NCBI GenBank assembly: GCA_030704615.1
Contig: CM060731.1
Location: forward strand, 80,104,001-80,168,000
Source: Takakia lepidozioides
Lineage: Eukaryota; Plantae; Bryophyta
Length of the DNA stretch: 64,000 nucleotides
Direction: 5' to 3'
Positions within the stretch are counted from its first letter, which is position 1. Each line of letters opens with the position of its first letter. Below are positions 3,001-49,470 of the stretch, in pieces. A program made the translations under genes and the position numbers. The notes under the pieces were generated by a model that ran no database searches, was not told where the DNA came from, and saw only the letters and a program-made list of their open reading frames with translations.

Positions 3001-4871
3001 GAAACTGGTCCCCATATCGTGCAGAATTTTCAATGTTATCGAACTGTATCATTTCAGGTTGATAGTTAGGGGTAGGACATCTGTTTTTAGCTTGTCAAGA
3101 AGAAGGTAATCAGGATTTCAGTTCACACCAACGTAATTGTAGAACAAAATTGTTGCATATGGATTTAATTTATTTGTGGTGGAAGCATGGTGCAAGAAAA
3201 GGATCTTATGGAATCGTACATTAGAACGTGGTGATCCACCAGTCTAAACATTCTTGCAAGACAGTATCTTCTCTCAGCATTCTGAAGGGAGTTTGGCTTG
3301 AAACCCTGCATTTTAGTGCCTGGTTCTGTTGAATTCCTATTGAAGAACTAATGTGCGCATCCTGCAGGGCTGGGAACGCGCTGGAACAGATCCCACAAGT
3401 CTACATACGAGTGAAGTATGTCACTCACTACCTACAACGGCCACTTGATTTACTGCAGTTCTTGTCAGGGCAGGAAATGAGTACTTAAAGAGATATATAT
3501 ACATCAGAATGGAGTAGCAATATGATGTCAAAGAACTGAACTAAGGGTAGGAAGGAATAACGAAGCGACAGGTCAATGTGAACTACTAGTAAAGATAGGT
3601 CTCTGTAGTCGTTACTCAGACGTGTGCATCCTTATGGCATTGACTTTGGAGTCCGATGCAGCCATGCCATTTCCTAAGCAGTGCTTAGTCAGCTTCTCAC
3701 AGTATTCGACCTTGAGTGGAAATCAGACTGGAAGAAGACGCATGTATTATCGTCTCGCTAAATGATATCTATGAGGATGAAGACGGTCTTATTTTTACCG
3801 AACATGTACTTGAATAGTTGGCTCGGAGGTAGTTAAATTATATGATTAATTGTGATTGAGTTCCGGTGTAGAGATTGACCCAGAAATGCTGAAACCTTCC
3901 ATTTTTTCTGGCAGAGATGAGAGAATGACTGTGTCAGCAGTGAAGACGTACTTGGTGAACAAGTTTGGTCTTTCAGAATCAGAGGTACTCTGGCACTCTT
4001 TCACATTTCTGAACGTGTCTAGTGTACTGCTAATAATGGTCTTAGTTCCGGAAATGTAATACCCTCTGACGACACGCTCTTCCTTGAAATTCGAGGAAAA
4101 TAATCTGTACAGTCAATAATCTCCAAACATTAACCTCCATGGATCATATTAATCATAAGACCTTGACCAACAAAAAAGATCTCCCAGAGAAGAACTGTAA
4201 TCAAACTCCCGGAGTAATGGAGTCTCGCACAAAATCTGCACTCTATTTAGATTCCTAGCTGTGAATGTATTTTAAGCTGCTTATTGCTCTGTGGAAATGA
4301 AACTAGACCAAAGAGAGAAGGTTCAGGTTGATCTCTGTAGTCACGTTTACTTGCAGCAAGTAAAATAAATGTTGGATGTTGAACCCACCAACACTTCTGG
4401 TGCATTCACCTTCAGGACTAACTTCTGCAAGGTTGAGATAGTCATGATCTTTAGTAAATATGTAGTTGGACTTGGTTTTTGAAATTTATTTACTGAAATT
4501 TATTTACTGAAATTCATGGAAGGGTTTGTAGTTCTTTGAGCTCAGATTATCAGGAGTCCTTACATCAGATGTGCTTCATTCTAAAATATATTTGAAATTG
4601 ACTTATATTGATGCAGATAGAGATTGCATGCATGGGGCAACACTTGTCGCCCAGCCTCCCATTGCAGCATGTGCGCAATACTATCTGGCTGCCACTTAGC
4701 AGTAGGCCTGCTCAGATCCCGGAGCATCATGCCTCATCAGCTGATGTTGATGTACGATTACGGGAAGGAAGAGCCCGTCCACTTTCAGACGGTTCTGTTG
4801 TTCTCTCAGAGGATGTGGTTATGATCCTCACATACAGTCGGCACCCACCAGCTGCCTCTCCATCCCTTTGA
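4..4871 (+). CDS. LAX PANICLE 2-like / BMI1-DRIP C-terminal RAWUL-domain protein; exons 4-1371, 2284-2555, 3368-3415, 3915-3984, 4617-4871
   Basis: GT-AG introns with compatible phases join to give GLWFTLQAAENQAGNALEQIPQVYIRVKDERMTVSAVKTYLVNKFGLSESEIEIACMGQHLSPSLPLQHVRNTIWL, the plant RAWUL/LAX2 signature. The long low-complexity N-terminus has an LQLGL EAR-like motif. No RING seen. The start could lie upstream of the window. Confidence 0.8.
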
Positions 4872-7789
4872 CACATGCCTGTCCTTGGGTAAAGAGCACT
4901 CACAATTACATTTGGGGAGAGGAACACACGTAATTGGCCCAAATGAAACTGCTGGAACGTGATCCCATGGTGGTTTCTTGTATTTCTTCTTGTGAATGTT
5001 GTATCGATGGCCCTCGAGCTGGAGGTACCCTTCGAGTACTGATTTTTTCCCCGCTAATTGATTTCTGGACATGGGTACTGGCCCAGCCCACCTAGCATTT
5101 GATCCCTGATGCAATCCCTCAACAGTGTTCTGGCAGCGCATTTCTGCCAACGGCCTCAAATTTTGATCGTCTTTGACTGGAGAAACAAACTGAAACTTAA
5201 GTCTGATTGAACTTATTGAGTTGAGATTTCATGTAGATCTGGGTGCATCTTATATTTCTCCACTTACTTCACAGGTGGATGGTAGGCAGCCGGCAGCCAA
5301 ATACATGTCAATTCTGCTGTACGTGTGATGGAAGAACCTAAAAGTTGGTTAATCCTCCTGATGAGCAGGATGACATTGCTTGCTGCCATGTTTACTGTAA
5401 ACCACTTGCCGAGATGTAATATATCACCTTGATCAGGTAGGAACTCGCAGTATGTCTTTCATTCATCTCCCGTCGGACCACAAAAGGCAATGTGAGGGTT
5501 GTAGCCTTACGTCCTACATCCGTAATCACCTCACAGATTCACAGCTTATAAGACGTCATGAAAACCAATATCGCTGGACGGTACGAGGGATGTCCCTTTA
5601 GATATGCTCTATGTCCTTGTGGATGTAATGTATATCTCTCTCTCTCTCTCGCAGCCACCGCAATATTTATGCGGAACCAAGCCAAGTTTATTACTTGTCT
5701 AGATCCCAACTTTGTGATAGAGCTTCAGTTGGGTGTCTAGCAGTCACACATTACAGAAACTGATGTGCACAGGTACATTGATTTGCAGTATGAAACTCTT
5801 CAGTCTGTACTCAACCCAAGATCACGATTAAACTACAAGGGATATTAAACTGACGCAAGGCTCCCTCCAATCTGAGGCTAGTGCATGGCTCAAACTCTGT
5901 GCGTCTGTTGATACATGTTTCTTGGGCACTGTTAGTGGGAGGGAGGGACTGATTCTACTGAAGTTTTTGTTTTCTAGTTATTGTTATTACTTGAATTGTC
6001 TCATTTATTAATAACTTTTTTTTAATAAAAGGGAAACACCTGGGAGCGACAGCTCACAAATCAGGCCCTTAGCAGTGAGAGGAGAAATAACTTTATACAT
6101 TTCACTTTGATAAAAAATCTACCAAAGTACTTTCTTATACTCGGATCACAAAATCGGTTAAAAGCCCATTTTGTAGAACCAGCTTTCTTGCTTTTTTTCT
6201 TTTTTTTAAAAAAGGGAAACACCTTTCTTTTTTGTCATGATCATCTTTTCTCCTCTCTTTTTTTAAAAAATAATTGACAGAGGACTGTGGCCCTAAAGAA
6301 CTTTATTTTGAATTATTAGGGGGGGGAAAATTAAAACCCCTGAGCCAACCATAATTTTTTTTTCTTTTATAACTAAACGACTACCAAGGGCTTCTTAAAA
6401 TAAAAAAGGGCTTATTCCCCGTTTTAATTTATTTTTTATTTTTTAAAGTGATATGTTTCATCATATTGGCATCCCCACACAGAATACACACCGTGCTCCA
6501 GCAATTGGTACAAGCCTGGGAAGAAAGATGATAAAACCACTGTTGGGCGGTTCTGGTTGCCTCCAATTTTAGGAAACTAATTACCTGCAGTTGCGGTTAT
6601 TAAATTCTATACAGTTGCTAGATATGCGGTTCCAGTTGCTTGCGAAAAACCTTAAATAACCGGCAGTTTTCATCAAATAACCGTGGGTATGGGGCGGTTT
6701 TTTAAACGTTTCTTTGCTTGGATATTTGAATGCCCGACCTATGCGGGTTCCTAACTTGACCGGTTATTTCACTTTTTCAGCTCCGCCGGTCATACATACA
6801 TATAACCGTACCGGATATGTAACCGCCAGTATTAGAGAGAAATTTAAATAATCACCCAACATTGGATAAAATCCCCTTGGGTGGGAAAACCCTTCTTCTT
6901 TTGCACTGATTGGCCAACAGAGAAGCAAATTTAAAAAATTCAAATCTAATCGTGTAACCATGCCTAAGATTAAGCTTGGGTTCAAATGCAAAGATCACGC
7001 TTCCACGTTGAGGCACATCGTTATTGTAAGTTGCAAACATAGACTTGCACGACGTCATCCAAAGGTTTTATTTGATCCCTCTATGTGTAACCTTCTACCC
7101 ATTACACTATGGTATGATCCACCAAGACTCTTTTAAATATATTACTTAAACAATCATACCATCGAATTTGTGATGCCTGAACCAACTCGATTTTCCCTCC
7201 CAAAAGAAGGAGAAAAAAAAAACACTCTCAATATTGGCCTTCGTTGTGTCATGATGAAGAGATCATAGAATGAGCAGCTAGCACATTGTCAACCAAGACT
7301 GCTAGCCAACAAACAACTACATTATGGGATAATTCGCACCATAAGGTGATTTTCATTTACACTTAACGGTGCTTACCATGAAAATACCTATTCACATTGT
7401 CAAAATCCTACTAGAGCTAGGGCCGGTTTACCTTGTTTTTGTTCTGCCGCCAAATTTTTTGTTGTCTATTTTTCATCTAGCTGTGTAATTTTTTTGTTTC
7501 TCATTCATGCTTGCATCATCAATCACATTTTCACAATCCGTCAATATTGATATTTCTTATTAAATCCTTTGCGCCTTCGTCGCCAGCCTATTATCAACGG
7601 TTTGTGTGGTTGAGTTCATTTCATCATAGAATCTCATGTTGCTCTTTTCATTTCTCGCTGTCTTATTCACCATCCAATCTCATAACCCTATTTTAACTAA
7701 TTATGGACTGAACACATAGGCTGGGACTTAGCCTCCTTTTGTCTCCCGCGCTACCATTTGTTTACGTAGTATCGAGCCGAAGCAGTGAG

Positions 7790-8860
7790 AACTTGTGTCA
7801 TGGAACTGGATGATCGCAGGATATGCAATGCAGGGGCGTGGGATTGAGGCTTTGCGACCTATTCTTGAGCAACTGATGCAACTTTCTTGAGCTTATTCTT
7901 GAGCAAATGATGCAGGAAGGGCGAGGATATGCACAGCGGGGGTGTGGTATAGAGGCTTCGGAGACGTATGAGCAAATAATGCGGGAAAGGGTGAAGCCGG
8001 ACGGGTCACGTGTGTTTGTGTTTGCAATGCGTGTGCAAGCCTGGCAGCCCTAGAGAAGGGTAAAAGGTCCATGGTGCCATTGTCAAATTTGGAATTGTAC
8101 CCGATGTCATTCTGAACAATACCCTCGTGGACATGTATGTCAAATGTGGCAGTATTGAGGATACAAAGGGAGTGTTTGAGAATATGGCTGAACGAAATGT
8201 CGTGTCCTGGAGTGTGTGATGATCGCGGGATATTCCCCAGCATGGATGTAGGATGGAGGCATTGGAGACCTATGAGCAAATGATGCGGGAGGGGGAAAGG
8301 CAGACCTGGTCATGTTCGTTTGTATATGCAATGCTTGTGCGAGCCTGGCAACCCTGGAAAAGGGCAAAGAGGTTCATGGTGACATCATCAGAGCTGGAAT
8401 TGTACCCGACGTCATTCTAAACAATACCCTCGTGGACATGTATGCGAAATGTGGGTGCATCGAGGATGTGAAGGGAGTTTGCAATGGTATGGCTGAACAA
8501 TGCTTGCAGGGTATGCACAGCAAGGCCGCGAGAAGGAGGCTTTGGAGACCTACGATCAAATGATGGCGGAAGGGGTGAAGCCCGACCACATCACGTTTGC
8601 ATTTACAATGCATGTGCAAGCCTGGCAGCCCTGGAAAAGGGCAAAGAGGTCCATGGTGACATTGTCAGAGCTGGAATTGTATCCGATGTCATTCTGAACA
8701 GTACTCTTGTGGACATGTATGCAAAATGTGGGTGCATCGAGGATGCAAAGGGAGTGTTCAACAGTATGGTTGAACGAGATGTGGTGTCGTGGAGTGCTAT
8801 GATTGCAGGATATGCACAGCAAGGGCGCGGGATGGAGGCTCTGAAGACCTATGAGCACCT
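7790..8860 (+). pseudogene. Degenerate PLS-class PPR gene fragments
   Basis: Frameshifted P-L-S motifs such as NTLVDMYAKCGCIEDAKGVF, DVVSWSAMIAGYAQQG and ACASLAALEKGKEVH. Confidence 0.85.
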
Positions 8861-9014
8861 TCTTCAACACATTTCAGCCTGTTTCCCCTGTTATCAGAGT
8901 CGTCCCTAAATTTTTAGGTTGAATTCTACAAGTTAGCTCGTTGGTGCAAAAAGGTGAATGCCTGTTGGAAGCTCAAGTCAGCATAGGAACTTGTGTGATA
9001 AGTAGGGTTAGGGT

Positions 9015-9201
9015 TGTCGTGCGCATACATATCGCTACACAACTACATCGATGTCCAAAACCACACAACACATGTGCACGCCACACACTAGTATATCACT
9101 AGTTCACCACTAGTCCAACCACTAGTCCAACCACTAGGCTACACTAGTCAGTCACTAGGCTGCCACTATACTGCCCATTATGGCAGTCACTAGTCCACAC
9201 A
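9015..9201 (-). repeat. Terminal repeat B (distal copy, B2) of copy 1
   Basis: 187-bp direct repeat of 9532-9718 with 3 substitutions seen; rich in CACTAG units. Confidence 0.92.
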
Positions 9202-9203
9202 AT

Positions 9204-9529
9204 AGATAAAGATGAAGAATACAAGCACAAGCTCATGCGAGCTCACAAAGCTGAAGCATAAACTCATGCATATATAACCTCATCACTCAAATACAAGTCA
9301 AGCCAAGTGCACCCCACGCCATGGGGAATCTACACTACGGCGCCATAGCTAGGCGCGGTGAGGCTCAACTCGAGAAAGATGAGCCTCCCGCGCTTGCCGT
9401 GAAGATAACCACTCCAGGGCCTAAATCTGCCTTGACCCCTGGATTGACACTTGGGCCAATCCCAAATGTCAATATGTAAAAGCTAGCTATTTCCTAGCTA
9501 GTTTCACACTAGTGGTAAATAACTTGACA
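9204..9529 (-). repeat. Terminal repeat A (internal copy, A2) of copy 1
   Basis: Homologous to 30818-31128 and 45116-45429; its first ~50 nt also match 20463-20513. Confidence 0.9.
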
Positions 9530-9531
9530 GC

Positions 9532-9718
9532 TGTCGTGCGCATACATATCGCTACACAACTACATCGCTGTCCAAAACCACACAACACATGTGCACGCCA
9601 CACACTAGTATATCACTAGTTCACCACTAGTCCAACCACTAGTCCAACCACTAGGCTACACTAGTCAGTCACTAGGCTGCCACTATGCTGCCCACTATGG
9701 CAGTCACTAGTCCACACA
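9532..9718 (-). repeat. Terminal repeat B (PPT-proximal copy, B1) of copy 1
   Basis: Follows the polypurine tract; joined to A2 by GACA-GC-TGTC. Confidence 0.92.
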
Positions 9719-9719
9719 A

Positions 9720-9730
9720 TCGCCCCCCTA
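9720..9730 (-). other. Polypurine tract
   Basis: TAGGGGGGCGA lies immediately before TTGTG of B1; the same sequence occurs at 44871-44881 in copy 2. Confidence 0.75.
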
Positions 9731-9785
9731 GCTGGTGCTTAGGTCCCTCTAAGTCCAGGTAGCCACAAGATGTGATAGTGACCAT

Positions 9786-12053
9786 TGTAGTGTGAAAAGA
9801 AAGGGCGTGAATCCCCTTCTGTGCAAGTCTAGTTGTGTTCCTCCCCAGGTTGATTGTAAGGAAGGAAAGGAGCTCTCCTCTCAGGTGATCCAACCAGCAT
9901 CACTCGGTGTGGGTTTCCCTCAGGTCCTTCATGATCAGAGTTCACACAATCCTCATCCACGCCGCAGCGGAAGAGAAGACATGGATGGGGAGTCTGTATT
10001 GTTTTCACCCGTGATTCTACTTTTACACGACATCCTCTCCCTGGTACACTGCACCAGCCATGTTACCATGCTGTCTTCAGTGATGCAACCAGCCCTACGT
10101 CAGTGATGACCACTGCCCTTGTGGGCAGCTCCCTTGGTCAGCAACAAGTGGAATCCCCTTTGTAATAAGATCACGATTTGGAAGGAGGCAACTCAGATCT
10201 GCCATGAGTTGCAGGCCCACCAGTTTGGCCCTTCATGGGTTCATGCTTTCTTTATCTTACCGCCCCAATCATCCATTCCTCTCCATCCCCTCTTGCTGGT
10301 CAGCTCTCTCCCTTATGTTCCTCACTCTTTCCACTGTAGCATGTCTATGATGCAATGTAATGCGCATTCAGCCAAGCATCCAGTGCACCCAGCATTGAAA
10401 TCAACCTTGGTCACACAAGATATAATCAACCCTTTTATCAGTCCCTCTCTTGCCAATGACAGATCCTTCACACTCCCCTTTTCCCAGGTGCAGCCATTTG
10501 CCCAAGACAGCTCTCAACCCTTCTTGTTGGTTTCCAAACAGTTCTATCTAACTCTCACTGGTTTCCTCTACCTACCAAGCTAGTTCCACATTGACTGCAA
10601 TGTGTCAACATCCCAGGCCAGATTGTTTGTACAAGCTCACGACGCTGAAACAAGGAACAAGAATACAACAGCAGCAACCATTCTGTCCCAGCAACGAATC
10701 AACCCTGTTTCCATTCATTTTTCCTACTATACAATGTAACAGCAGGTGCATCCATCTCCAGTCCATCCTGGTTTGAAGTCCAGTGTCTTCATTCCTTTTC
10801 CAAAGCTCTTTTTCTTCCTCACATGTCAGTGTCTCTTACTACATACAAGAGACCGTCCAAAACTTCACAAAGCGATTTCTAAGTCACCAAAAAGAGAGCC
10901 ACTCTTCAAACTTATCTGTCTTATACTCTTTGAGGCGGTGGGTCTGCCTGTCACGAAGGCACCTTGTCCTCTCCCTCGTCAGCCATTTCCGACGTCTCTT
11001 CTTATCGTGATTCCAGTCCTCATTAAGGCATGACGGCTCTGCTTCAGCTGCTGGCACATCCTTGTGTCTGCCAACCTCTACCCTATCCTTCTACATGTGC
11101 ATTCCTTCCCTATGAAGTGATCTGGTCCTACAGCCTTTAAGACAGAGAGCAGATACAAAACTTAATTATAGATAGCTTAAGCGCCATACACACCAGAAGG
11201 CGGCACCGCTTCCTCTTGCACAGAATGCCAAGCCAGATCCCTTAACGTCGCTCTTTAAGGCAAGCTGATTCTTTTACAAAGTGATCCGGTCCTAAAGCTC
11301 AGAAACAGACAGCAGCTACTAGATTTGATCACAGATAACCTGAGGCGCTATACACACCAGCCTATATTTCTCATCTCCCAACACCTGCTGAGCCGCTCCA
11401 TCTCCTCATTAATGTGCTCATCAAGACAATGGCGACAGCAGTGGTGCACCGCCCTTGTCACAAACCTGATCCCTCTGGTTTGATCATTGCTTACGAAGAA
11501 GGCGGCACCGATTCTTCTTGCACAGAAAGCCAAGCAGGAGCTCTTAACATTTCTCTTAAAAGCAAGCTGATACCCTTTGCGTAGGTGGAACTTTCTCAGA
11601 TATCATGTGCTGCCAGCACCACTGCAGCAGCTGCGAAAAGATACACGCACTCTTCTTGCACAGAAAGCCAAGCAGGAGCTCTTAACATTTCTCTTAAAAG
11701 TAAGCTGATACCCTTTGCGTAGGTGGAACTTTCTCAGATATCCTGTGCTGCCAACACCACTGCAGCAGCTGCGAAAAGATACACGCACTCTTCCCCTTCG
11801 AATTTCACATCCTGCTTCTAGGGTTCAACATCATGGATGAAAATCATTCATCCTAGGGATGAAAAAGGCGCATGTCACAACTTAGCCATATTTTGTTCCT
11901 GGCAGATCAATAGCATAGTCTTTCCATGGAATTACCTCAAGTTATGGACAATTCCTCCCCTTCATCAGCACGAAGGGCACTCCCTTTGTAGTAGTGCCGA
12001 AACCTAAGGCCAAACAAAAACTTGAAATTTTTACCCCCTGCACTCACACTACA
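9786..12053. mobile_element. 2.27-kb nested insertion (probable solo LTR or non-autonomous element) in the 3' UTR of copy 1
   Basis: 10-bp inverted ends TGTAGTGTGA...TCACACTACA; TSD CCAT at 9782-9785 and 12054-12057; absent from the homologous site in copy 2 (~44815-44822). Confidence 0.85.
11513..11793. repeat. ~138-bp tandem duplication inside the nested insertion
   Basis: Unit tcttcttgcacagaaagccaagcagg... starts at 11513 and 11651; a diverged partial copy lies near 11200-11280. Confidence 0.8.
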
Positions 12054-12254
12054 CCATAGCTAGTCTCACTAAGTCCTCCACCACTATCCCTACTACACTC
12101 AAACTCAATAGATCAAGAGGCCGGGTGCAAGAGTTGCCCCATCGTTAGTCGCCGTCTTACAACCTGTGAACTTGAGCTTGGGATCTCATGTATTGACTCC
12201 TATGAGCTTGGCCTCCCATGTCTTGTTAGCTGCCTCCAGTCATGTCCACTGCCA

Positions 12255-13540
12255 CTATCCCAAGCAGTGTGGACACAACCAATCTCCGTCAGGAACCTTC
12301 TCAAGAGGTGGTGTCAAGCATCCCATATGCCAACCCCTTGAGCATCGATTACACACCAGCATGGTGGCTGCCCCTTTGGCAAACCCACAGAGCATGCACC
12401 TCAAACCTGCAGGTACCACTGCCAAGTTTGGGTCAACTCTGCCATCGACATTGGGAAGGTGACATGGCGCACAATTACGCACATGGTCTTTCCAAGTCAT
12501 GCCATCCCGACCCTCCAAGATCAGGACTCCTGAGGGCAACACCTCTTGAACCCTCAGAATAACACGCCCTGCAGTAACATCCAGAGTCGTAGGAGCAGTC
12601 TGCTGCAAATAGACATAGTCACCAGGGCTAAACCTCCGAACCCCAGGACGATATCCTCCACCACGTATAGTGGCATACCTCAACGTATCACGGTGTTGTG
12701 CAATGGCAATGTTCTCAAAAGCCATGGGCATGACTTTCTTGAACAACTTTGCACGCTGATCACATACACGTACCCACACGTCCGGATCGTCAAGGTTAAG
12801 GACTTGAGCAGTGTCCCTACGAATGGCTGCAGGCAAATCCGGCTCTCGGCCAAAGAGAAGGAAATATGGTGAGAAGGAGACAAGTGATGCTTGTTTGCTG
12901 AACCTGTAGCCCATGGCTAACCAAGGAACCTGAAGATCCCAATCTCCTAGGTGTTCCTTCTGCAAGCCATACTTGCGCAAACCCCTCTTCACCGTCTGAA
13001 CAACTCTCTCTGCCAAGCCATCGGCCTCAGGATGATCCTGAGAAGTGGTGCGGTGGTCTATCAAGGCTTTATCACACAAAGCCTGAAACTCCCCCAAGAA
13101 CTCTCTCCCTTGGTCCGTGAGTACCTCAGCTGGAGCACCAAATCGGCTAAGCACACGATCAAGAATGCATACGCAGCCCCCTCACTAGCCTTGTCAGGCA
13201 ATGGAACCAACTCAATCCACTTGGAGAAGTGCTCCACCATCACCAACACATATCTGTGGTGGCGCATAGTCAGTGGCAACGGTCCTGCGAAGTCAAGACT
13301 CCACCTGTAGCCCAATCCCATGATTGGTAAAGGATGCAACTGTGGTGTAGGGGCGTTGAATGAAGCACGCACCCTGTCACACACCATGCACCTAGCCAAC
13401 TGTTGCACCTCTGTATGCATACCACGCCACCAATACTGCCCCTGCAGTAAACTGTGAGTGCGTCGCACTCCAAAATGCCCAACTCCTCATGGGCATGCCG
13501 CACTAACCGTGCACGCTGTGTGGGGTGAGGCACAATCCTC
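12255..13540 (-). CDS. Integrase (HHCC Zn-binding, DDE core) with C-terminal PHD finger; frameshifted
   Basis: Motifs HAHEELGH...CMVC, WSLDFAGPLP, VLTDQGREF and DGLAERVVQTVK. PHD finger CMLC...CNRCSRGWHMGCLTPPL...W.CPHC at ~12260-12395. Confidence 0.92.
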
Positions 13541-15300
13541 ACCGACCATCCTCCCATACTCGAAGTAGGTGTATCCCCTCCCACTTGAACCTCTTGGCTC
13601 GTTGCAGGATCCGATCCCTCTCCCTGGCAGTCACAGTGGCTGTCGTGTCTCCCGTGCGGAGGTAGTCCAACACAGCCGAATCCTCATGTATATCTTTGGC
13701 ACCACCTGGCTCATCACTAGCCTCAGGGTCCTCAGACACTCCGTCTACAGTCATCCCTGTTGTAGGTCCAACCTGACCTCCCGATGCCAAGATACACAAA
13801 AATGCAGATGCGTGCCATCCCGGCACCATCTCCTCGTCCGTCTCACCATGCCACCGAGCTCCAGTGTCATCCTGCTGGCTCATGCATGGATTGCGACTCA
13901 ATCCATCCGCATCCCGATTGACCAAACCCGGTCGATGCACAACCTGAAAGTCATACTCCTGGAGTATGAATGCCCACCGTGCAAGCTTCCCCGTAAGCTT
14001 GTCTGACTCCATCAACCACTTGAGTGGCTGGTGATCCGTGACAAGGGTGAAAAGATTGCGGTATAGATAGCACCTGAAGTGTGCCACGGCCCACACTGCA
14101 GCTAAGCACTCTCCCTCATATGAGCTGTACTTAGCCTCTGCAGCGTTGTTCGAGCGGCTAGCATAAGCCACTACGAACTCTCTTCCCTCATCATCCACCT
14201 GTGTGAGCACCGCTCCAAGCCCCAGCATGCTCCAATCCGTATGCAGCTGAAAGGGACGCCCCCTGATAGGTCGTCTCAGGATAGGCGCCGAGGTCAACCT
14301 CGCCTTGAGCTCTTGAAAAGCTCGTTCCTGCTCATCTTCCCACTGCCACTCCTGGTCCACCTTGGTCAGCTTGGTTAGAGCCTTTGCAATGGTACTAAAT
14401 CCCTTGACAAACCGTCTATAATAGTTTGCCAACCCCATGAAAGCTCGAACTCGGCTCACATCCGTGGGGCGTGGAATTTGTGCAATGGCCTCTACCTTAG
14501 TCTGCTGTACCCCCAATCCTCCAGGATATATCATGTGACCCAGATACTCAATCTGGTTGTGGAAAAACTTGCACTTCCCCGGATGCAACTTCAATCCGTG
14601 CGCTCTCAAGCGCTCCAATACCACCTGAAGGTGTCTCTCATGCTCCTCCATCGTAACACTAAAGATGATGATGTCATCTATGTAGCACCGAGCAAAGTCC
14701 ACCCCTGCTAGAATCCTATCCATGACTCTCTGAAACTCTGCAGGAGCATTCTTAAGCCCAAATGGTAAGAACCGCCACTGATATAGGCAATCCTTGCCGT
14801 GCTCATTGATCCCCCAGAATGTCGTCTTCTGCTTGTCCGCCTCCTTGATTGGCAACTGGTGATATCCGGATCGTAAATCCAAAGTGCTAAAGACCTTAGC
14901 ATGCCCGATGGCATCAAAGATCTCCTCTGGTGTTGGCATGGCATACTTATCGGACTTGGTCTGACGATTTACAGGCCGGTAATCACCGCACATACGTCTC
15001 TCCGTCCAATTGCCATAGACATCCTTCTTGGCTGGCATCACTGTGGCTGAAGCATACTCTCCACCAGAGAGCTCCACCAAACCTGCCTCCCAGAGATCTT
15101 GAGTCCTCATCTGAATCAAAGACCTCTCCATGTCACTGTATCTATAGGGTCTCCGAAAGATTGGCGTGTCAGTGGCCAACTCAATACGGATCTCTTGACC
15201 CTTCAGTGCTCCCAAGTCCTTCAAACTGAAGGCAAAGCAATTCCTGTAAGCCCTCAGGAACCGCCGTATACGTCGTCTCTCTCCTCCGGTGACAATGGGT
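13539..15300 (-). CDS. Gypsy reverse transcriptase and RNase H
   Basis: Motifs RMCGDYRPVN, LDLRSGYHQ, LPFGLKNAP and YIDDII; RNase H motifs LHTDWS...ECLAAVWA...TDHQPL. Confidence 0.95.
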
Positions 15301-15370
15301 CCAATGTCAGGCTCCCAACTGCAACCTTAAGTCCAGTGGGCTTAGAGGTAGAGGACGCGTCCAGTGGTTG

Positions 15371-18300
15371 CTATGTTGCAACCTCTTGAGCAGTACTCCC
15401 TGCCTGCTCAGTCAATGACAAGGCCTCATCCTGCCCCATCATCTCATCCTTGAGGACCTCCTCAACCCGAGAAGAATCCCCAACCTCATCCATCACAGCC
15501 GCCTTGGCTGCCAACTCCCTCTGAACCTCGAGCACCTCCCACGTGTGCCATGGATGCATGCACCCCGTGGTCCTCACATGCTCGCCCCCACTCACTGCCT
15601 GTACCGTCTCGGTAGGCAGAGAGACCATCGAGGGAAGTGTACTCCGCACTCTGCGTTGCTCAGCCAGAGCCAAGCTGATAATCCAGGTCAAGCAATTGAG
15701 ATCCATTGCTTGCCCCAACACTTGACGACGTGATGCCTCAGAAAGAGACGACACCGCCGTGGTACCAGTGGTAAAACCCATTGCCCGCTCACGCTCGTCA
15801 GCATTAGGCTCCACTAACTGCTGCAACTGAGCATCCCACAGGAGGCCAGGTCCACTATCCCGGAAAGCATGCGATCCTGGGAAGCTGAGCAGTGTAGGTA
15901 ATGCTGCTCGTGGTTGACCCACCTTGTTGACCACTGCCAAAGGCGAACGGTCATCGTGTCTCACACGCTGAGACTGCCTCCCTGTGTCCAGAATGCTATC
16001 CACTGTGAGATGTGCTGGCCGCTGCACCCCATCAAATGCACGCTTGAGCAGTGCGGGTGGCATCAAGTTAGTCCACCATAGCCGTGGACGATGAGCCCGT
16101 GACCCCACTGTAGCTGCATCTAGCAACACTGCTGACCCAAGCCACGACCGGACTTGATGCACACTGGCCATCACCCTGGCCCGAGAATCGCCCATCAGTG
16201 GCACATTCTCCAAGATGTATGCTGGAGATACAGCTTGATGAAGCTGCAAGTGGCGCAAAACCCGCACCATCTCCCAAAACAGACCCGACCTCGAGTCTCG
16301 CAATCCATTGCCATGCCCGGCTGATGAATGCCCTTGGCAGGGCCAACCTGCCACTACCAGATCAATGGAGCCAACCCGCTCCAAATCCTGCGCCCCCAGC
16401 AACGAAATGTCTGCTGGCAAGGCCTGCTGATATCCACGAATTGCAGACACCGACAACAACTCAGGGTACCGCTGCACCAACTGAGCAACATGGCGAAGTG
16501 AAACGCGTCGTGCAGTCTCATCCCTCTCCACATACAGGTAACGCCGAACTCGTACACCTGCCTGTAACACAGCAGCCAATCCGGTGCTGATCCCGCCAAA
16601 CAAGTCCAGAAGACAAATGCCTTCATCCGGATACTGCCACACAATAGGTGTGGTGTCCAATGGAGACAACTGAGGTGGTCCTGGTGCAATCCCCGCACTC
16701 TCCTCCTCTCCTGACGGTACAAAAGCCTCCACCCAGGCTTGTTGCACCCGTCGATCAGCATCCCGCTGCAAATCCTTGCTCGTGCCCCACAATGGAGTCT
16801 GAGCAACCATGGTAGGCAACTCCGCCATACCATACATGTCATCCTGCTCTCCCGGAGGTGGCACATCCTCTGAATGAGCGTTGCCCTCAAGCAACTCTCT
16901 AGGCCAACTCACTGCCGCTGTGAATGCTGCTAGTGTCGGCATCTTGCCTCGCTGGGCAACCGCAACTCCTCCTATGAACGTCACAGGGAGCTGCACACGC
17001 CGGCCCTCCCCTGACTGCCATGCAGGCCTATAGGAAGCTGACTCCTCCCAAAAATCCAGGGTGAAGCCCATGGGGTACAACACTGCCCCACCAACCAGGA
17101 CATCGTATGAGACCGCGTCTGTCACAATGGCCTTGGCTCGCATCACTGAGCCATCTGTAGGGTGATCCGGCCGTAGTCTGATAGCCAACTCACGCCGTGT
17201 CATGCCCCGAGCCTGCTCCGATCCTCCCAGAGACGTCTGTATCTGGAAAGGACAAGGCTCCATATCCGCCTCCGTGAGGCCCAAGCCTGCAATAGCAGCT
17301 CTGCCCAGCATCAATGGCTGAGCTCCCGAGTCCAACAAGACCCGCAGTGGCCGGTACCTCTTGCCTGCCGGTCCACTCAAACAGAAAATGTCATCCTGGT
17401 TGTCTAACATGACAACTCCAGGTGTCACCATGGCGCGCTCAATGGCTGGCCTAGCTGGCAGCTCCATCAACCTGGCAGCTGCAGCTTGCCATGGCGCCGC
17501 CGTGGCAGTCTTGACCCTCAAATCCGAGGATCCCTCCGGCACTACACCTCCCACTATCTCCGCAGAAGATGAAGTAACCTCCCCACTCTCACAGAGTGTA
17601 GCTGCCAGCCTGAACACCTCAGCTGGTCTTACCCCCGGCGTCGCAATCATGGTAGCCGAGAACAATGGAGCCTGGCACACAGATGTGGCCGCTCCTAGCA
17701 GCACACTAGCTGCCGTAGCCTTGGCAACACTAGGTAGTGGTGCTACCCATGTAGCTCTCCCCAATGGCATAGTAACCTCCGCCTCGGTAACAGTCGGGCG
17801 AGAACTAGGTGCCATGGATGGCGTCGACACTGTCTCCGCCAATGTGAATGACTGAGGAAGCCTAGCCTGACGGCTTGCCTCCCCACGCTGTGGATCCAAC
17901 TCCACCTCTGCACCTCGTGGCTCAGGAACTCGTGCTGCTCCTCGAGTCACGGCTGCAGCAGACTCCACCTGCACTAGTGGTAGTGCTGCTCCACACATGA
18001 ATCCCATGCCTCCCATATCTCCTCCCTCAGGAGCAGGAGGTGGACCATCCGGCCTTAGAGCCGGTACCACCTGAGCTGTAGCCATGGCAGCGAGCCTCTG
18101 CTCTAGCTGCTGAAGCCGGTTGGCCATGCCTTGGTCAACACCCTGACCTCCGCGTCCTTGGCCATGTTGAGCTTGCCCTTGGCCTGCACCTCGTGGCTGG
18201 CCACCTCGTCCTCTTTGGGCTGCTCCACCTCGCCCCCGGCCACCATTGTTCCCTTGGAACTGGCCTGGGCGCAACTCAGGATGCAAACCATAACACTGGG

Positions 18301-19036
18301 CCTCTCCATGCCCGTGCTTGCCACAATGCCCACACTGCAATTGTGCAGGCTGTGCATGTGCCGGCCCTTTGCCTCCCTCTGGGCAATCCTTCTTGACATG
18401 GGGTCCTCCATATGTCCAGCACACCACATCCGCCCGTTGTTGGCCAGTAAATGAAGGGAGAGACCCCTGCATCTGAGGTCCTCTCTGCCCTTCCCTGAGT
18501 TTCACCTGAGCCCCCTTGTTGCCTTGAGCACGTTGAGGTAGTGGTTGGCTAGGAGCACCACTACCCCGTGGTGTCTCCTTAGCAAATCCCACCATGACCA
18601 CTCGTTCCTCCACCATGTTGAGCTCTATCCGCTCTGCCAGCAAAAACACATTTGCTAAGGTGGGTTGGGCCGCTTGTAGGAGAGTTGCATCCCGTACCCT
18701 TCTCCTCAGCTCCTTGTCCAATATCCCATACCAGAATTGGACTGCTTGAGCTTCCGTAACCCCTTGGGTTACCTTTATCAAGCGCCTCATGCGAGTGAAA
18801 ACCTCCCTCAAGCTCTTGGTCGGCTTCCGTTGGAACTCTTGCAAGCTCCGCAACTTCTCTGTCCTCACCCCTTGGTAGTTCCCTCTCAACTCTTCGAAGA
18901 ACTCCACAACAGGGTTGAAGGCAGGCACGGGTACTAGTGCTGGTGCGGTAGTGGCTTGGGTGGACGTCGTAGCTACTGTACCACCAGTCCCACTGCTACT
19001 TGCTGAAGTTGCCGGTGCAGCGGCAGGTGTAGCCAC
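15371..19036 (-). CDS. Gag C-terminal part, zinc knuckles, aspartic protease and C5-cytosine DNA methyltransferase (1221-aa open frame)
   Basis: CCHC knuckle CGHCGKHGHGEAQC; protease LLDSGA at ~17320-17340. MTase at ~15690-16620 has motifs I LDLFGG, IV GWPCQG, VI ENV, VIII AHRPRLWWTN, IX ERERAMGF and X RQVLGQA. Confidence 0.92.
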   Translation of the reverse strand: MATPAAAPATSASSSGTGGTVATTSTQATTAPALVPVPAFNPVVEFFEELRGNYQGVRTEKLRSLQEFQRKPTKSLREVFTRMRRLIKVTQGVTEAQAVQFWYGILDKELRRRVRDATLLQAAQPTLANVFLLAERIELNMVEERVVMVGFAKETPRGSGAPSQPLPQRAQGNKGAQVKLREGQRGPQMQGSLPSFTGQQRADVVCWTYGGPHVKKDCPEGGKGPAHAQPAQLQCGHCGKHGHGEAQCYGLHPELRPGQFQGNNGGRGRGGAAQRGRGGQPRGAGQGQAQHGQGRGGQGVDQGMANRLQQLEQRLAAMATAQVVPALRPDGPPPAPEGGDMGGMGFMCGAALPLVQVESAAAVTRGAARVPEPRGAEVELDPQRGEASRQARLPQSFTLAETVSTPSMAPSSRPTVTEAEVTMPLGRATWVAPLPSVAKATAASVLLGAATSVCQAPLFSATMIATPGVRPAEVFRLAATLCESGEVTSSSAEIVGGVVPEGSSDLRVKTATAAPWQAAAARLMELPARPAIERAMVTPGVVMLDNQDDIFCLSGPAGKRYRPLRVLLDSGAQPLMLGRAAIAGLGLTEADMEPCPFQIQTSLGGSEQARGMTRRELAIRLRPDHPTDGSVMRAKAIVTDAVSYDVLVGGAVLYPMGFTLDFWEESASYRPAWQSGEGRRVQLPVTFIGGVAVAQRGKMPTLAAFTAAVSWPRELLEGNAHSEDVPPPGEQDDMYGMAELPTMVAQTPLWGTSKDLQRDADRRVQQAWVEAFVPSGEEESAGIAPGPPQLSPLDTTPIVWQYPDEGICLLDLFGGISTGLAAVLQAGVRVRRYLYVERDETARRVSLRHVAQLVQRYPELLSVSAIRGYQQALPADISLLGAQDLERVGSIDLVVAGWPCQGHSSAGHGNGLRDSRSGLFWEMVRVLRHLQLHQAVSPAYILENVPLMGDSRARVMASVHQVRSWLGSAVLLDAATVGSRAHRPRLWWTNLMPPALLKRAFDGVQRPAHLTVDSILDTGRQSQRVRHDDRSPLAVVNKVGQPRAALPTLLSFPGSHAFRDSGPGLLWDAQLQQLVEPNADERERAMGFTTGTTAVSSLSEASRRQVLGQAMDLNCLTWIISLALAEQRRVRSTLPSMVSLPTETVQAVSGGEHVRTTGCMHPWHTWEVLEVQRELAAKAAVMDEVGDSSRVEEVLKDEMMGQDEALSLTEQAGSTAQEVAT

Positions 19037-19039
19037 TGC

Positions 19040-19560
19040 CCTCGTGGCTCTAGTGCCCCTAGTGATGGAGACATAGTCGGGTGACTAGTACATCCTCCAC
19101 TCCTCAATCTCAACCTCATGCCATCATCCATAGGCGGCCCCTCAAGGTGCTGAAACAGCCCCTTCCATGCCATGAAAGGCGTAAATAGTTGTGGATTGCG
19201 CATTTGCTGCAAATCACACCAACTATCAAACTCTTGGATAAAATCATCCAACTCGATGGTGTCCACCGCCCCAGAGTACCTTCGTGGCCCCTTGGTAGCT
19301 CCATACATCTCCTCCATTGTGTCCCACAACAATGGCAAAGAAACAACTTGCACCGCCGGTATGAGTCCTCCTGATTCACAATCCGAATCAGAACCTTCCG
19401 TAGAAGACACAGGAGGTGAAGGTGGCCTAAACCTCACACCTCGTCTCGTGTACCCACTAGTATCGCTAGTGCTCGAACCGGCACTGTCCCCAGCAACTAG
19501 TGGCACCTCCATGTTGACACTCAACCGGTCATGAACATGTCCATAACCCCCTCTCCACAA
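19040..19560 (-). pseudogene. Gag N-terminal region (frameshift and stop before the main ORF)
   Basis: PRRYSGAVDTIELDDFIQEFDSWCD...LFQHLEG resembles a retrotransposon capsid N-terminus and directly precedes the 1221-aa ORF. Confidence 0.7.
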
Positions 19561-20339
19561 GGTAACCGGGTAGAGAACCTGTTGCGGCTTATGGTTTGGA
19601 ATACTAAGTTCCTAACATAGCCTACACCTGTACCGGCATCCACCGCAAACACTCCTATGGTTGGCTGGTCATCACCTCCAACCTCACCACAGGAGAAACA
19701 ATGATGGTCTGGCTGGTCATCACCCCAGCCTCACCATCGACAGCATGCTCTAGGACTGGCCGGTGATCAAATCCGGACCAATCACCTATAAAAACAAGCG
19801 CCCACACAAAACTAGCATGGCGCACAGTCAAGCATGCAGGTATGGAGGGGATCCAAACACAAGAAATCATAACGACACTCCTGCAAGGACACCCCAGCCC
19901 AAACCCGGACTGACTCTTGCCTCCACCTACGGAAAGGTCTTGGCCTAATGAGAGGGTGGAAACTACAAGGAAGAGAAGCTAAAGCAATGCCTAACCCCAG
20001 CATGCCCTCATCCCAACACTCTTCCTCTCCTCTCTTCCCTCACTTGCATGACCATGGGAATATCATGAAGATACTCCTCAAACCGCCCTCAGCCAAGACA
20101 CAAACGCCAGCATTGAGGCATACCATGGAAATCTGAAGGCAAGACTTGCCATGGGGAAAAGCAAGACGAGTGGTTGTAGAGTGGACTGGCTTATATGGGA
20201 ACTCACTGGCCGTGTGCTAACACACTACTGGTACGCAATCCATTTGAAGACCCACGGGTTCATAAGAAATGACAAACACGAAAAGTACATATCCAGTTCT
20301 ATACTTGCGGCACGAGACATTCCTGCTGAGAATGTTACT

Positions 20340-20460
20340 CTTCCTTTGCATGAGGGACATGGCGGGCTGCTATACACCACATTGTTATTTTGGGCTTCCA
20401 ATACTGCTCGATATAGTCCACGAGCTTCAAAATTCGGCCTTCAAGACCACATGCCTGTCC
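20340..20460 (-). pseudogene. Possible MULE-type transposase fragment replacing most of the 5' repeat A
   Basis: LVDYIEQYWKPKITMWCIAARHVPHA resembles the Y...W......W....R..PHA segment of plant MULE transposases; the match is short. Confidence 0.35.
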
Positions 20461-20462
20461 TT

Positions 20463-20513
20463 AAGCTAGCTATTTCCTAGCTAGTTTCACACTAGTGGTA
20501 AAATAACTTGACA
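20463..20513 (-). repeat. 5' terminal repeat A (A1) of copy 1; only the first ~50 bp retained
   Basis: Matches ~9480-9529 with a single 1-nt indel. Confidence 0.85.
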
Positions 20514-21620
20514 GGGTGTTTGCTGGAACAGAGAGGCAGAGATAGCTGAAGGAGCAGGGATAGAGAGTGGGTTCAGATTCATCCAAGAGGGCCAGATTTC
20601 AAGCATAGGATTACTTATGATTCCCTGTGGATCAATACCTACAAGAAACCTACATAGGTAGATGGTCAACTGGATGCCGCAGCAGCAGCGGCACAACTGA
20701 TAAAATCAAGCACTGGTAATCAAGGCACCTTCTTCAACACATTTCACCCTGTTTTTCCCTCTTATCAGAATCGGCCCTAAATTTCCTGTTGAATTCTGCA
20801 AGTTAGCTGGTTGAGTGAATGTAGTTTGGAGTGACTTTGACATGATACTGCCACTGTGACAACATGAAAGTATCCAAAAACACGTAACAGAGATGAAAAG
20901 AACTTGTGGAATGAATACTTTTTTGACCCCAGTCAATGGTGGGACACTGAGGCAAAAAGATGAATGCATGTTAGACAAATCCTCCATGGATCAAGGACAA
21001 TGTGGTGAGGGCACCTTCTTCTTTGACCTTTTTCAGTCTGTTTTGCCCTCTCATCAGACTTGGCCCTGAGATGCATATTGAATTCTGTAAGTTAGCTTGT
21101 TGGGTGGATCTGTGGTGGTTTGGAGTGACTTCGACAAGTTACTGCCGATGTGGCCGCAGGAAGTATCCAGAAACAGATAATTGAGATGAGGAGAAGCTTT
21201 GGAATGAACACTCTGACCCCAGTCAATGGTGGGAAAATGGAGACAAAAAGGTGAATGCCTGTTGGACTACAGAGAGAAGCAGATGCAATATAGAATTGGA
21301 ACTACTGGAATAAGTCGGGCTCGGGTGTTTGCTGGAAATTTCACGCCGTTAGTGTCAGCTGCTAGCAGCAAGGCTGAGGATGTATTTATGATTTGTATGC
21401 AGGCAGGGATATATAGCTGAAGGACCAGGGATAGAGGTCCAGATTTATCCAAGAGGGCCGGGTTTCAAACACAAGATTAATTCTGATTTCCTGTGGATCA
21501 ATAGCTACAAATGGGTAGATGGTCAACTGGAAACAGCAGCGGCAACAACACAATTGATAGAACAAGACACTGCTAATGAAGGTACCTTCTTCAACACATT
21601 TCACCCTATTTTTCCCAAGG
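20514..21620. repeat. Dispersed local repeat family of unknown origin (two partial tandem units here)
   Basis: Shared blocks such as cttatcagaatcggccctaaattt and gagtgactttgacatgatactgcc recur at ~8870-9010, 26280-26890, 36980-38110 and 39180-39530. Confidence 0.75.
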
Positions 21621-22105: not shown

Positions 22106-23957
22106 CTATATCGACTCCCTCACCACCTTGGGAGCCATGAAAGTGCCAACCGGATTCTCGGGTGCTTTCCAAAAGCATGCCATAAACAAGAAATGGTCGG
22201 GGATGAAGTCACATGATCTACACGTGATGATGCAACAGATTTTGCCAGTGTGCATTCGGGGTACGATGGCGCCAGGTCCTCGAACAGCCATAATGCGTGT
22301 AAGTCGAGTGTTTAGGAAGATTTGTGCGAAGGTGTGGGATCCGAGGGACATTACATCGTTGCATGAGGATGTGGCTATGACCCTATGTTTGCTGGAGAAA
22401 GAATTCCCTCCATCATTCTTTGACGTCATGACGCACTTGCTAGTGCATCTTGTGTGGGCCCGTAGCCAGCCGGTGGATGTACCCCATGGAGAGGTACATG
22501 AAGGATCTGAAGGGGTATGTACGCAACATGGCACGGCCAGAGGGGAGTATGGCGGAGGGCTACATCCGCGACGAAGCCCTGGGCTTCATGACAGAGTATA
22601 TGTCTTCATTTGATGCAATGCAACGACGGGTGTCGGACGAGAACGAGGAAGAAGGAGTTGTAGGCGAGGTCCTAGAAGGTGGTGGAACAAAGCGTGCCAT
22701 GAGCCCGCGCCTTCGGGATGTGGCACATGATTATGTGCTGAACAACACAACAACCATGACACCATGGAGACAGTGGGTGCCAACTTACATCCCTCCTGTG
22801 CTATTCTTAATGGTCTTTGTATGCTGGAATTACATATATATTGTCACAAGTCATTCCGGCCACTATGGGAGTGGGATCGTGTACTAACAGGGTGCTTCAG
22901 ACGACTACAGAGGGTGTTTCGTAGATCTTGGTTGTTGCTTGCAAGTGATTATGAAGTAGGCTGCATCACTACAGTGTGCTTGAAAGGACACACACTCTGC
23001 ATGTGGCATGCATGTACAGTACGGTGTTGGTCAGGGGGACTGAGTTGCAGCTTCTATTTGGTTTCTGCCAGAAAGTACGCAGCGGAGAAGGTCCGCCTGA
23101 AAACGGAACGGAGTGCATTTGCAAAAGCATGGCGGAGGGGCGGTCGTAGGTGCAGATCCCCGGTGGAGTACCCCACAACAATGGAGGAGCTGCAGCCCTT
23201 TACAGTGTGGGTCAGATCTGCAATTGCAGTGTATGCATCAGAGAACGAGGACCCAGATGAGGGCATGGTGAGTCTGTCATTCCCCCCAGGGCTGATTGCC
23301 ACTTCGTACCGGTCAATGAAAGCATATGGCAATCACTATAGAGTGGACAATGCCAACACCAGCCTCCTGGTGACTTATGACAGCGGAGTGGCATCATTTC
23401 TTGAACAAGAGAGTAGGAGCTATGCACGAGATCGGAATCCAATTTCATGCCATGTGCAATATGTAGGAGTGATCAAAGAGATCCTTAAACTAGACTATGG
23501 TCTTGTGAAGCCAATTCTATTCCGTTGTTCTTGGGTAAAAGCCAATATGGTAGGAGAGAATGCCACCATGAAACGGGATGAGTACGGGTTCCTCCTTGCT
23601 GATTTCAGAAAAATGCTACCACAAGATGAAGAGCCATTCATCTTCCCATCGCAAGTTGAGCAAGTTTTCTTTTCAGATGACACCCATGCGCCGGGATGGA
23701 AGGTGGTTCTTCACAAGGACCCCCGGGCCAAACGAGTCGTGGCCGACGTCCATGATCTGGACCTAGGGGAGAATGCCGACCACGAGGGTCTGAGGGAACC
23801 ACGAAATCTACCAGATACGGCCGAACCAGTCTCTTTGGAAGGAGCAGTTACCTTTAATGAGGAAGACATTCCAGGGTTGGTAATTACCGCAAGGCAAATT
23901 GCAGATGTGGGTAGTGAAGGGGAAGATTATTTGGATACAGATAGTGAGCCCAGCTGA
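22106..23957 (+). mobile_element. CACTA/EnSpm TnpD-like transposase, 5'-truncated (DUF4218 and DUF4216 regions)
   Basis: KSHDLHVMMQQILP, FFDVMTHLLVHL, GPVASRWMYPMERYMKDLKGYVRN..RPEGSMAEGY and YVGVIKEILKLDY...LFRCSWV...EPFIFPSQVEQVFF. Probable intron ~22773-23070 and a frameshift at ~22450. Confidence 0.9.
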
Positions 23958-25460: not shown

Positions 25461-26879
25461 TTGTGAAATGGAAAAGCAGCTACACATCAAATTATTGCGA
25501 TGCCACTCAATGGCACTATGAACGTTTCGAGCATGCTGTCAGAAAGTTAGACGGGCAAAAACCCAATTCAGCAGCCTCACCTTGCGTGGATACTTGGGAA
25601 TTGATGCCAGAAGGGCATGCCCGTATGCGCGCTCCATCGTGCCTCCATCCAGCACATTCTGTAAATGTTGAATGACCAAGACCCCGATGTCACACCGTTC
25701 TGAGAAGCCACTACGCGCGCTCACAGTATACGAAGGCCTTGTTGTCAGGATTTGCATTCCCACGTCCCGCCATGTCCGACGCAGCACTTGCATCCTTGTC
25801 TCTGCCAGGTGGAGGCAACACATATTAAAATATCTATTCCCCCAAGGCCACATTTTGTTTACCTCTTTTTGTGAAAGCCACGTCAGCAAATGTGCTGCCG
25901 AGTCATGGGTGCAATGAATGCGCAGTGGTTCATGGAGTCGTTGAGTCGACTACATATTCACTTTAATGAATAAATATCTTTATTCCATTAATCGAATTAG
26001 GAAATAAAATTTATAGTCGCATGTGCAGTAATTACAACCACTTGTAATTTTGGCTTTTTTTCAAATTTTATGTATTTACGCAATTCGTAAAATAGCCCGG
26101 AATTCTGCTACGACTCCGAAGCCGTTGACCCCACTTCTGTCCGCCGTCTGAAATGCCCCCGTGGGCCCACATTGTCTGTTTCGACTCTCCAGTAGTCCCG
26201 TTTACTACCAAGTGGTTCCCGGAGTGGTCGCGGACATGCAGTCGAATCGGAAAAGACACGAATGCTTCTAGTGTATGTACCATCTACCCATGCAGGTTTC
26301 TTGTAGCTATCCTTCCACAGGGAATCATAAGTAATCTGGAGCTTGAAATTTGGCCCTCTTGGATGACACTCTATCCTTGCTCCTTCAGCTATCCATGCCT
26401 CTGCACAGATCATGCATACATCATTGCATTGATGTTAGCAACTGACAATGGCAGCCTAGATTTGTTCCAGCAAACACCCAACTCAACTTATGACACCAGT
26501 TCATATTCTCAATTGCATCTACCCCTATGTAATCCAAAGGCATTTACCTTCCAAGACGGTTGTCCCACCATTTACTGGGGTCAGAAAAGTATTCATTCCA
26601 CAGCTTCTCCTCTCTGTTACCTATTTCTGGATACTTTCCTATTGTCACTTTGGCAGTATCATGTCAAAGTCACTCCAAACTATCAAAGGTTCACTCAACC
26701 AGCTAACTTGCAGAATTCTTAAAACATGAAAATTTAGGGCGATTCTGATAAGAGGGGAAAACAGAGTGAAATGTGTTGAAGAATGTGCCTTGATTAGCAT
26801 AGCCTGATTTTATCAATTGTGCCGCTGCTGCTGCGGCTTCCAGTTGACCATCTACCCATGCAAGTTTCTTGGAGCTATT

Positions 26880-27600: not shown

Positions 27601-27640
27601 TCCTCTTTTAGAAGCTGTGGTCATGGTTGAGGTGCCTGAT

Positions 27641-30801: not shown

Positions 30802-30817
30802 GCTCATCTTTCTCGAG
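30802..30817 (-). other. Primer-binding site complementary to the element's own LTR sequence
   Basis: CTCGAGAAAGATGAGC follows the TTATCA end of repeat A directly and is the reverse complement of the sequence at 30967-30982. Confidence 0.75.
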
Positions 30818-49420: not shown

Positions 49421-49470
49421 ATAAACTGGAGGGATCAGGAGAGTAATTTTACCATGGTTCCAGAGGGACA

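Follow-up and report, generated by a model that had tools for sequence, protein, structure and literature searches.

The palindromic 10-mer GACA-GC-TGTC at positions 9526–9535 is probably an integrase attachment (att) site of a Ty3/Gypsy-type element that has been shifted from the cDNA ends into the predicted U3. The reading, made from sequence, combines ordinary reverse transcription and end-joining with an integrase cut at this internal site. The internal position of the attachment site is well supported; a closed circle as the substrate is hypothetical. The window (the whole stretch of 64,000 nucleotides analysed) holds one copy, E1, on the minus strand, with the coding-strand layout X1 – internal – polypurine tract (PPT) – Y1 – gc – X2 – Y2. 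X and Y correspond to repeats B and A of the preliminary description. The features of E1 are as follows.

9011–9014, plus strand: target site duplication (TSD) GGGT, left.
9015–9203, minus strand: Y2 (A), the 3′-terminal repeat; GACA end in coding direction; 186 of 189 positions identical to Y1.
9204–9529, minus strand: X2 (B), predicted rest of U3 plus R and U5; TGTC start in coding direction.
9369–9385, minus strand: predicted self-primer and transcript-start sequence inside X2; complementary to the primer binding site (PBS) behind X in E3.
9526–9535, no strand: att-like palindrome GACA-GC-TGTC at the internal Y1–X2 junction; conserved across four LTR families.
9532–9720, minus strand: Y1 (A), which immediately follows the PPT with a (T)TGTG start; predicted first part of U3.
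9720–9731, minus strand: PPT; equivalent position in relatives.
12255–13181, minus strand: integrase core (second D and E motifs) and C-terminal PHD finger.
13182–13540, minus strand: integrase zinc-finger end and first D; upstream, in another frame, broken.
13539–15326, minus strand: reverse transcriptase (RT) – RNase H frame.
15371–19084, minus strand: gag-like (CCHC knuckle) – protease motif – C5 DNA methylase frame.
20089–20416, no strand: nested insertion of ~328 bp in the 5′ UTR; all four runs show skip-joints and a low contig depth there.
20463–20513, minus strand: X1 remnant, the first 51–52 bp of X, at the 5′ terminus.
20514–20517, plus strand: TSD GGGT, right.

The element is bounded by TGTC at 9015 and GACA at 20513, GGGT flanks both sides and the GC spacer is absent there. 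The termini claimed earlier, TGTC and GACA with no spacer, were thus confirmed. The junction had also been called head to head, which needs correcting: it joins the 3′ end of the element to its 5′ start (tail to head), and it is the 4-bp inverted ends that face each other across it. One contig of run X12 joins both E1 flanks with a single target copy; it may be a paralogue, since the target itself is a repeat. This target is a short repeat that follows PPR stretches and is present many times in the window. Degenerate PPR-repeat stretches are numerous (7800–8860, 26700–29600, 38000–39300 and 48900–52500), some of them in 375-bp tandem units.

The methylase domain of E1 matched PF00145 (E 1.4e-12), and a methylase was also present in the related contig L081, whose equivalent frame gave a weak Asp_protease_2 match for the protease. 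The D, D and E motifs of a DDE integrase were found in E1, E2 (a second copy in the window) and L081, and the HHCC zinc finger in E2 and L081, E1 being frameshifted. For a tyrosine recombinase, there was no Pfam match in 18 of the 21 listed short PPT–PHD frames or in three long plus-strand frames of L081. The rest of X1 and the PBS are likely deleted from E1, as contigs suggest that the 5′ UTR of other copies continues differently. About 2.3 kb between the PHD finger and the PPT of E1 (9721–12254) is absent from E2; it contains short internal duplications (11513–11793), and no Pfam match was found in its scanned frames. For the nested insertion (20089–20416), contigs connect one end to the other on the opposite strand, a possible sign of terminal inverted repeats.

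The other pieces of the family in the window are listed here.

41175–45659, plus strand: E2, a 5′-truncated copy (methylase end – RT – RNase H – integrase – PHD).
44872–44881, plus strand: PPT of E2.
44882–45113, plus strand: Y1 of E2.
45110–45119, no strand: att-like palindrome of E2, an exact match.
45116–45429, plus strand: X2 of E2.
45430–45659, plus strand: Y2 of E2, ending GACA.
30818–31129, minus strand: E3, a full-length terminal X with a TGTC start and a TTTATCA end.
30800–30817, minus strand: predicted self-priming PBS directly behind the X of E3; complementary to X positions ~146–163.

E2 belongs to a sister subfamily of E1. The X of E3 and X2 of E2 were identical at 291 of 303 positions (96%), and the outer four bases, GATG, are common to both. 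Since this outer flank matches, E3 is likely the 5′ end of E2 after an inversion. E3 (30800–31133) and E2 (41175–45663) are likely one insertion that was split by an inversion of ~10 kb and lost its gag. An empty site corresponding to E2/E3 was looked for in the window and not found. For the inverted copy behind E3, an initial reading as a micro-inversion gave way to that of a PBS. Y1 and Y2 of E2 showed 205 matches and 28 mismatches, much of this in a tandem array. They differ more from each other than the X copies of E2 and E3 do, for which misalignment and a second template molecule are indistinguishable causes. Just past the end of E2, the 5′ UTR of the family is represented by two pieces whose order is rearranged (46037–46421 and 46691–46738). 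At 55564–56413, an integrase–PHD fragment continues, with no PPT in between, into the initial 61 bp of Y. Frames at 22731–23957 and 35973–36641 matched DUF4216, which we take to be transposase-associated, and NIF phosphatase.

An exact search of the whole window for GACAGCTGTC gave two matches only, at 9526–9535 and 45110–45119, as the preliminary description had reported. With up to one mismatch, there were four matches in the window against 2.3 expected, and four were reached in 28 of 100 shuffles. The same description had neighbouring A and B sequences diverging between the copies, which was overstated: over 101 aligned bases at the junction, E1 and E2 agreed in 94 (93%), with 88% for the whole of A and 86% for the whole of B (gaps uncounted). 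Given this flank identity, the chance of an identical 10-mer in both copies was ~0.48. Because the flanks are so alike, the shared 10-mer of E1 and E2 is no evidence of selective conservation. The evidence for conservation of the 10-mer comes from other families instead of the two window copies.

Copy counts were based on Logan contigs and on relatives. For positions 9204–9800, the contigs numbered 8005 from run X1, possibly the source sample, and 138 from run X6. No substitution or InDel at ≥3% was found at 9526–9535 among these contigs, and 18 entries were listed for variants at other positions of 9204–9800. Exactly at position 9532, 41 contigs of run X1 leave the element for mixed flanks. 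Another 35 contigs continue to GACA and then diverge. The joint between X and Y occurred in at least six listed forms in the contigs of the organism.

Relatives were sought with an integrase scan of metagenomes, which gave 80 loci of 35–59% identity; duplicates were merged by flank, and classes were assigned from curated positions. A Y-nn-X junction was present in 27 of the 80 loci, corresponding to 16 independent insertions (15 of family F1 and 1 of F2). A single-Y end was present in 28 loci, also corresponding to 16 independent insertions. One locus (L065) was a deleted junction form and was moved out of the single-Y class, and 24 loci were unclassed (contig ends, nested insertions or truncation) and left out of the counts. 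The integrated forms were X-internal-PPT-Y-gc-X-Y or X-internal-PPT-Y, each with a TGTC start, a GACA end, no GC and a 4-bp TSD. In ten independent relatives with both ends visible, the TSD was 4 bp long, seven being perfect and three matching at three of four bases. A 5-bp TSD with the end at GAC was considered and rejected; it is possible for E1 alone and fitted fully in only one of the ten relatives. Insertion termini thus map to the palindrome, as had been expected, in E1, in these ten relatives and in the 41 contigs that exit at 9532.

The palindrome is perfect in young copies. The F3 contig L081 (RT 66% identical) carries a perfect 10-mer, and so does L216, another F3 contig, in which the Y-gc-X-Y end is uncollapsed and Y1 and Y2 are identical. 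L081 itself is a collapsed, self-overlapping contig. Both (G001) are plant-type retrotransposon contigs inside a cyanobacterial genome assembly, and contamination is likely. Variation of the spacer or palindrome among copies had been named beforehand as evidence against an att-like site. Formally, such variation exists, as the perfect 10-mer was found in none of the 16 independent old metagenome junctions; the spacer, however, was 2 bp long in all 16, and the changes fit the decay of GC by way of methyl-C. Of 31 junction changes, 29 were C>T or G>A, and 26 affected the four CHG cytosines in CAGCTG. As the copies are old (~14% apart), the simplest interpretation is that a methylated GC ancestor has decayed, the ancestor itself being reconstructed from the mutation bias.

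When the E1 LTR was compared by blastn with the F2 and F3 LTRs, the best match was the stretch at the palindrome; no match was found with the F1 LTR. An alignment of eight junctions showed a conserved island at the palindrome. In total, GACA-nn-TGTC stands at the equivalent place in four LTR families (three beyond that of the window), the LTRs of which can hardly be aligned elsewhere. A scan of viral contigs gave 66 loci of 27–40% identity, and no palindrome was found in the three examined (L149–L151). Of 68 loci from a scan of genome contigs, one (L081) was close; no palindrome was found in L082, L083 or L087.

These data bear on the idea that the arrangement is a one-off fossil (a tandem insertion, a rearrangement or an assembly error) or that the palindrome is a chance one without a role. 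The 93% identical flanks, with which two window copies share the 10-mer about half the time, and the collapsed L081 contig would fit it. It is contradicted by the conservation of the motif at the equivalent place in four LTR families, by independent insertions with differing 4-bp duplications and by the uncollapsed Y-gc-X-Y end of L216, and we regard it as extremely improbable.

Two other loci showed different structures. L064 contains a solo X-Y unit at 4711–5225 (minus strand) with a ragged joint and no clean TSD. L002 (3857–7120) and L003 (8810–11982) contain a different nested element behind the PHD finger, with direct repeats of ~750 bp beginning TGTCGCAACC and an antisense methylase-like frame.

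The position of the palindrome relative to the conventional LTR was the next point. A G-rich PPT precedes Y1 in every classed copy examined (the window copies and all 16 single-Y insertions). A self-complementary PBS was found behind X in three families, the sequences of which differ. In E3, it pairs over 16 nt perfectly with a site inside X. In F3 (L081), the pairing comprises 12 nt, two base pairs of which differ from those of E3 in a compensating manner, and in several F1 copies it comprises 11–15 nt of unrelated sequence. No long PBS complement was found in L019 and L046, which have a variant X and gave 7–9 nt only. As E1 has no PBS, E3 is the single source of the self-priming site in the window family. 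Fold z values were −5.0 and −2.9 for stretches that had been chosen to hold the pairing. TATAAAA was found 30–31 nt before the predicted primer in seven of the 11 F1 5′ ends examined, and the primer motif was not found in the remaining four.

With the PPT on one side of it and a Tf1-like self-priming site on the other, Y-gc-X probably represents the conventional LTR. It would correspond to U3-R-U5 and is still bounded by TG and CA in the window family. The palindrome would then lie in U3, ~145 nt before the predicted transcript start. Judging from the positions of the TATA box, the self-primer and the PBS, an RNA running from X1 to X2 would carry the palindrome once, in line with what the preliminary description had supposed. 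The integration ends appear to differ from the predicted cDNA ends because the palindrome lies inside the unit from the PPT to the predicted PBS, which agrees with the decoupling proposed in the preliminary description. The features on which the mechanism depends, namely the variable X–Y junction, the single-Y form and the self-priming site, were overlooked in that description.

A PAT/DIRS-like way of copying would place the ends elsewhere. The RNA would run from X1 to the terminal Y, both junctions would be inherited, the cDNA would end at the palindrome and the integrase would merely trim GC. The layout is that of the A1-B1-A2-B2 split direct repeats described for PAT and Ngaro (PMC4157794), and a 2-nt spacer is compatible with ordinary 3′ processing. 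However, the PPT before Y1 and the self-complementary PBS behind X1 both lie away from the palindrome, the TATA box is located ~130–170 nt inside X, and the X–Y joint varies between copies while the length of the att spacer is constant. Copying of this kind is improbable.

The X–Y joint was ragged, in contrast to the constant length of the att spacer. Of 17 F1 joints, seven had no extra base, two had one, three had two and one had four extra bases, three were ambiguous and one was complex, giving at least five forms. The four extra bases of the longest match the start of the PBS. Some of the variation (AT gain, substitutions) could be due to slippage or decay after insertion.

A mechanism based on an internal att site would run as follows. 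The RNA would start inside X1, prime itself in a Tf1-like manner and end in X2, carrying the palindrome once. Ordinary reverse transcription would place Y-gc-X at both cDNA ends, and these ends would be joined imprecisely, which would create the X–Y joint; a 2-LTR circle is the simplest form of such a product. The integrase would nick after CA on both strands of the site in the 5′ LTR, leaving 2-nt 5′ GC overhangs as in retroviral 3′ processing, and insertion would follow. The integrated form would be the end-joined molecule reopened at the palindrome of the 5′ LTR. X-internal-Y copies may come from 1-LTR circles or from the use of one half-site in each LTR, and they would be replication-incompetent, as they have neither the 3′ R nor the palindrome.

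The circle is the less certain part. The 5′ end is visible in six single-Y insertions, and none of them is the mirror product X-Y-gc-X-internal-Y. With its two equivalent sites, a free 2-LTR circle should yield this form too, so that an unexplained asymmetry is required. Among the classed insertions, 16 were single-Y and 16 junction-bearing, meaning that about half need no circle. The median divergence was 0.146 for single-Y (15) and 0.142 for junction insertions (16) (p = 0.37, or p = 0.50 if L065 is counted as single-Y; subfamily structure weakens the test). As single-Y copies are as common and no older, they may be primary products that arise without a circle.

The main rival explanation keeps the internal att site and dispenses with the closed circle: the RT jumps end-to-end onto the other cDNA end and recopies Y, and the integrase uses half-sites of an over-length linear DNA. 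Such a jump accounts for X-internal-Y-X-Y and X-internal-Y only, in line with the missing mirror form (0 of 6). The joints with 0–4 extra bases matching the PBS start also fit, and with single-Y copies no older than junction copies (p = 0.37) both may be primary products. On the other hand, no direct sign of run-on past one Y was seen, ragged joints are equally produced by host end-joining and the count behind the asymmetry is small. Overall, the jump is rather unlikely, though less so than PAT/DIRS-like copying.

The element is a structural variant of Ty3/Gypsy, not a canonical member. It shares with Ty3/Gypsy the order gag – protease – RT – RNase H – integrase, the DDE integrase with an HHCC zinc finger, TG..CA termini, a TSD within the 4–6 bp range, the PPT before Y1 and the self-complementary PBS behind X1. 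It departs in having no two complete and identical terminal LTRs: X stands alone at the 5′ end, with Y-gc-X-Y or Y at the 3′ end. In a quick RT tree of 42 rows, all from Gypsy with no other outgroup, E1 grouped with Marchantia P0007 (support 100) and with methylase/PHD elements; the group containing Klebsormidium was set off from the outgroups by a branch of support 100, with inner support of 67–91. The nearest named RT was Marchantia polymorpha P0007 (65%), and a Klebsormidium RT with a methylase, P0085, was 44% identical. Together with the wealth of PPR repeats in the host DNA, the Marchantia match suggests a seed-free land plant.

In insertion sequences of the IS3 family, such as IS911, a DDE enzyme acts on a circle junction in which the two ends abut across a short spacer. 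Their transposition is DNA-only, with long terminal inverted repeats and a junction made by the transposase. The likeness is in the abutted inverted ends and the short spacer (here GACA-GC-TGTC). The present element differs in having RT and RNase H; its inverted ends are 4 bp long, and RNA is the predicted template of its junction. The IS3 comparison drawn in the preliminary description is sound as an analogy and does not go beyond it.

The closest published layout is that of KnitGypsy-Dnmt3 from Klebsormidium nitens (de Mendoza et al. 2018, PMC5890265), for which the Fig. 4c legend gives the repeat structure of a DIRS element, explained in the Fig. 1e legend as A-coding-B-A-B. Gypsy domains with a C5 methyltransferase in the polyprotein and the A-coding-B-A-B layout are all found here as well; the published text available for KnitGypsy-Dnmt3 differs in that neither a mechanism of integration nor a junction sequence, TSD, PBS or single-Y form is given (PMC5890265). 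PAT, TOC, Kangaroo, Ngaro and VIPER are described with A1-B1-A2-B2 split direct repeats and a tyrosine recombinase (PMC4157794). They resemble the element in the split direct repeats with an internal copy of the end-to-start junction, whereas the integrase here is of the DDE type and the element shows TG..CA ends and a 4-bp TSD along with a PPT and a PBS.

In foamy virus, the integrase is reported to cleave both strands of a palindromic LTR–LTR junction after CA, with a 2-nt 5′ overhang as the product (PMC1180852), and for HIV-1, 2-LTR circles have been put forward as integration precursors (PMC4372172). Cleavage of a palindrome after CA in both strands, with processed-like ends, is also what is proposed here. 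In those viruses, as described, the palindrome comes from ligation of the cDNA ends and cutting restores a normal provirus; here it is internal to the LTR and separate from the ligated joint, and integration gives a permuted copy. Tf1, Tj1 and Tcn1 have a PBS directly behind the LTR and complementary to the RNA 5′ end (PMC7175516, PMC4600332, PMC6317226). The PBS of the element likewise adjoins the LTR and is complementary to the predicted RNA 5′ end. Tf1, Tj1 and Tcn1 differ in their ordinary terminal LTRs and chromovirus grouping, as the present clade has a PHD finger and stands apart from the chromovirus rows in the quick RT tree. As far as these sources go, the layout was known from one figure legend (KnitGypsy-Dnmt3, PMC5890265), and the mode of integration proposed here appears to be new. 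No description of the att site, junction or mechanism was found in the literature searched, which did not extend to Repbase Reports, theses, subscription journals or figure images.

In the textbook view, LTR elements integrate from the tips of linear cDNA, and 2-LTR circles are dead ends. Circles as integration precursors have been argued, in the sources seen, only as a side route for some retroviruses (PMC1180852, PMC4372172). LTR finders that require two full LTRs and a TSD, as described for REXdb (PMC6317226), would be expected to skip or mis-trim elements of the present kind. There is an even chance that, in this green-lineage Gypsy clade, end-joined cDNA is the obligatory productive intermediate, with an RNA-encoded att site in U3 that is cut by a DDE integrase. 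Only end-joined copies would then keep the 3′ R and the att site and be recopied, and the intact att site of each such genomic copy would be open to cutting by the integrase. The clade appears to separate cDNA ends from integration ends, which makes the question of circles as precursors testable with a 10-bp substrate. It may also illustrate a possible route from an ordinary LTR to split direct repeats.
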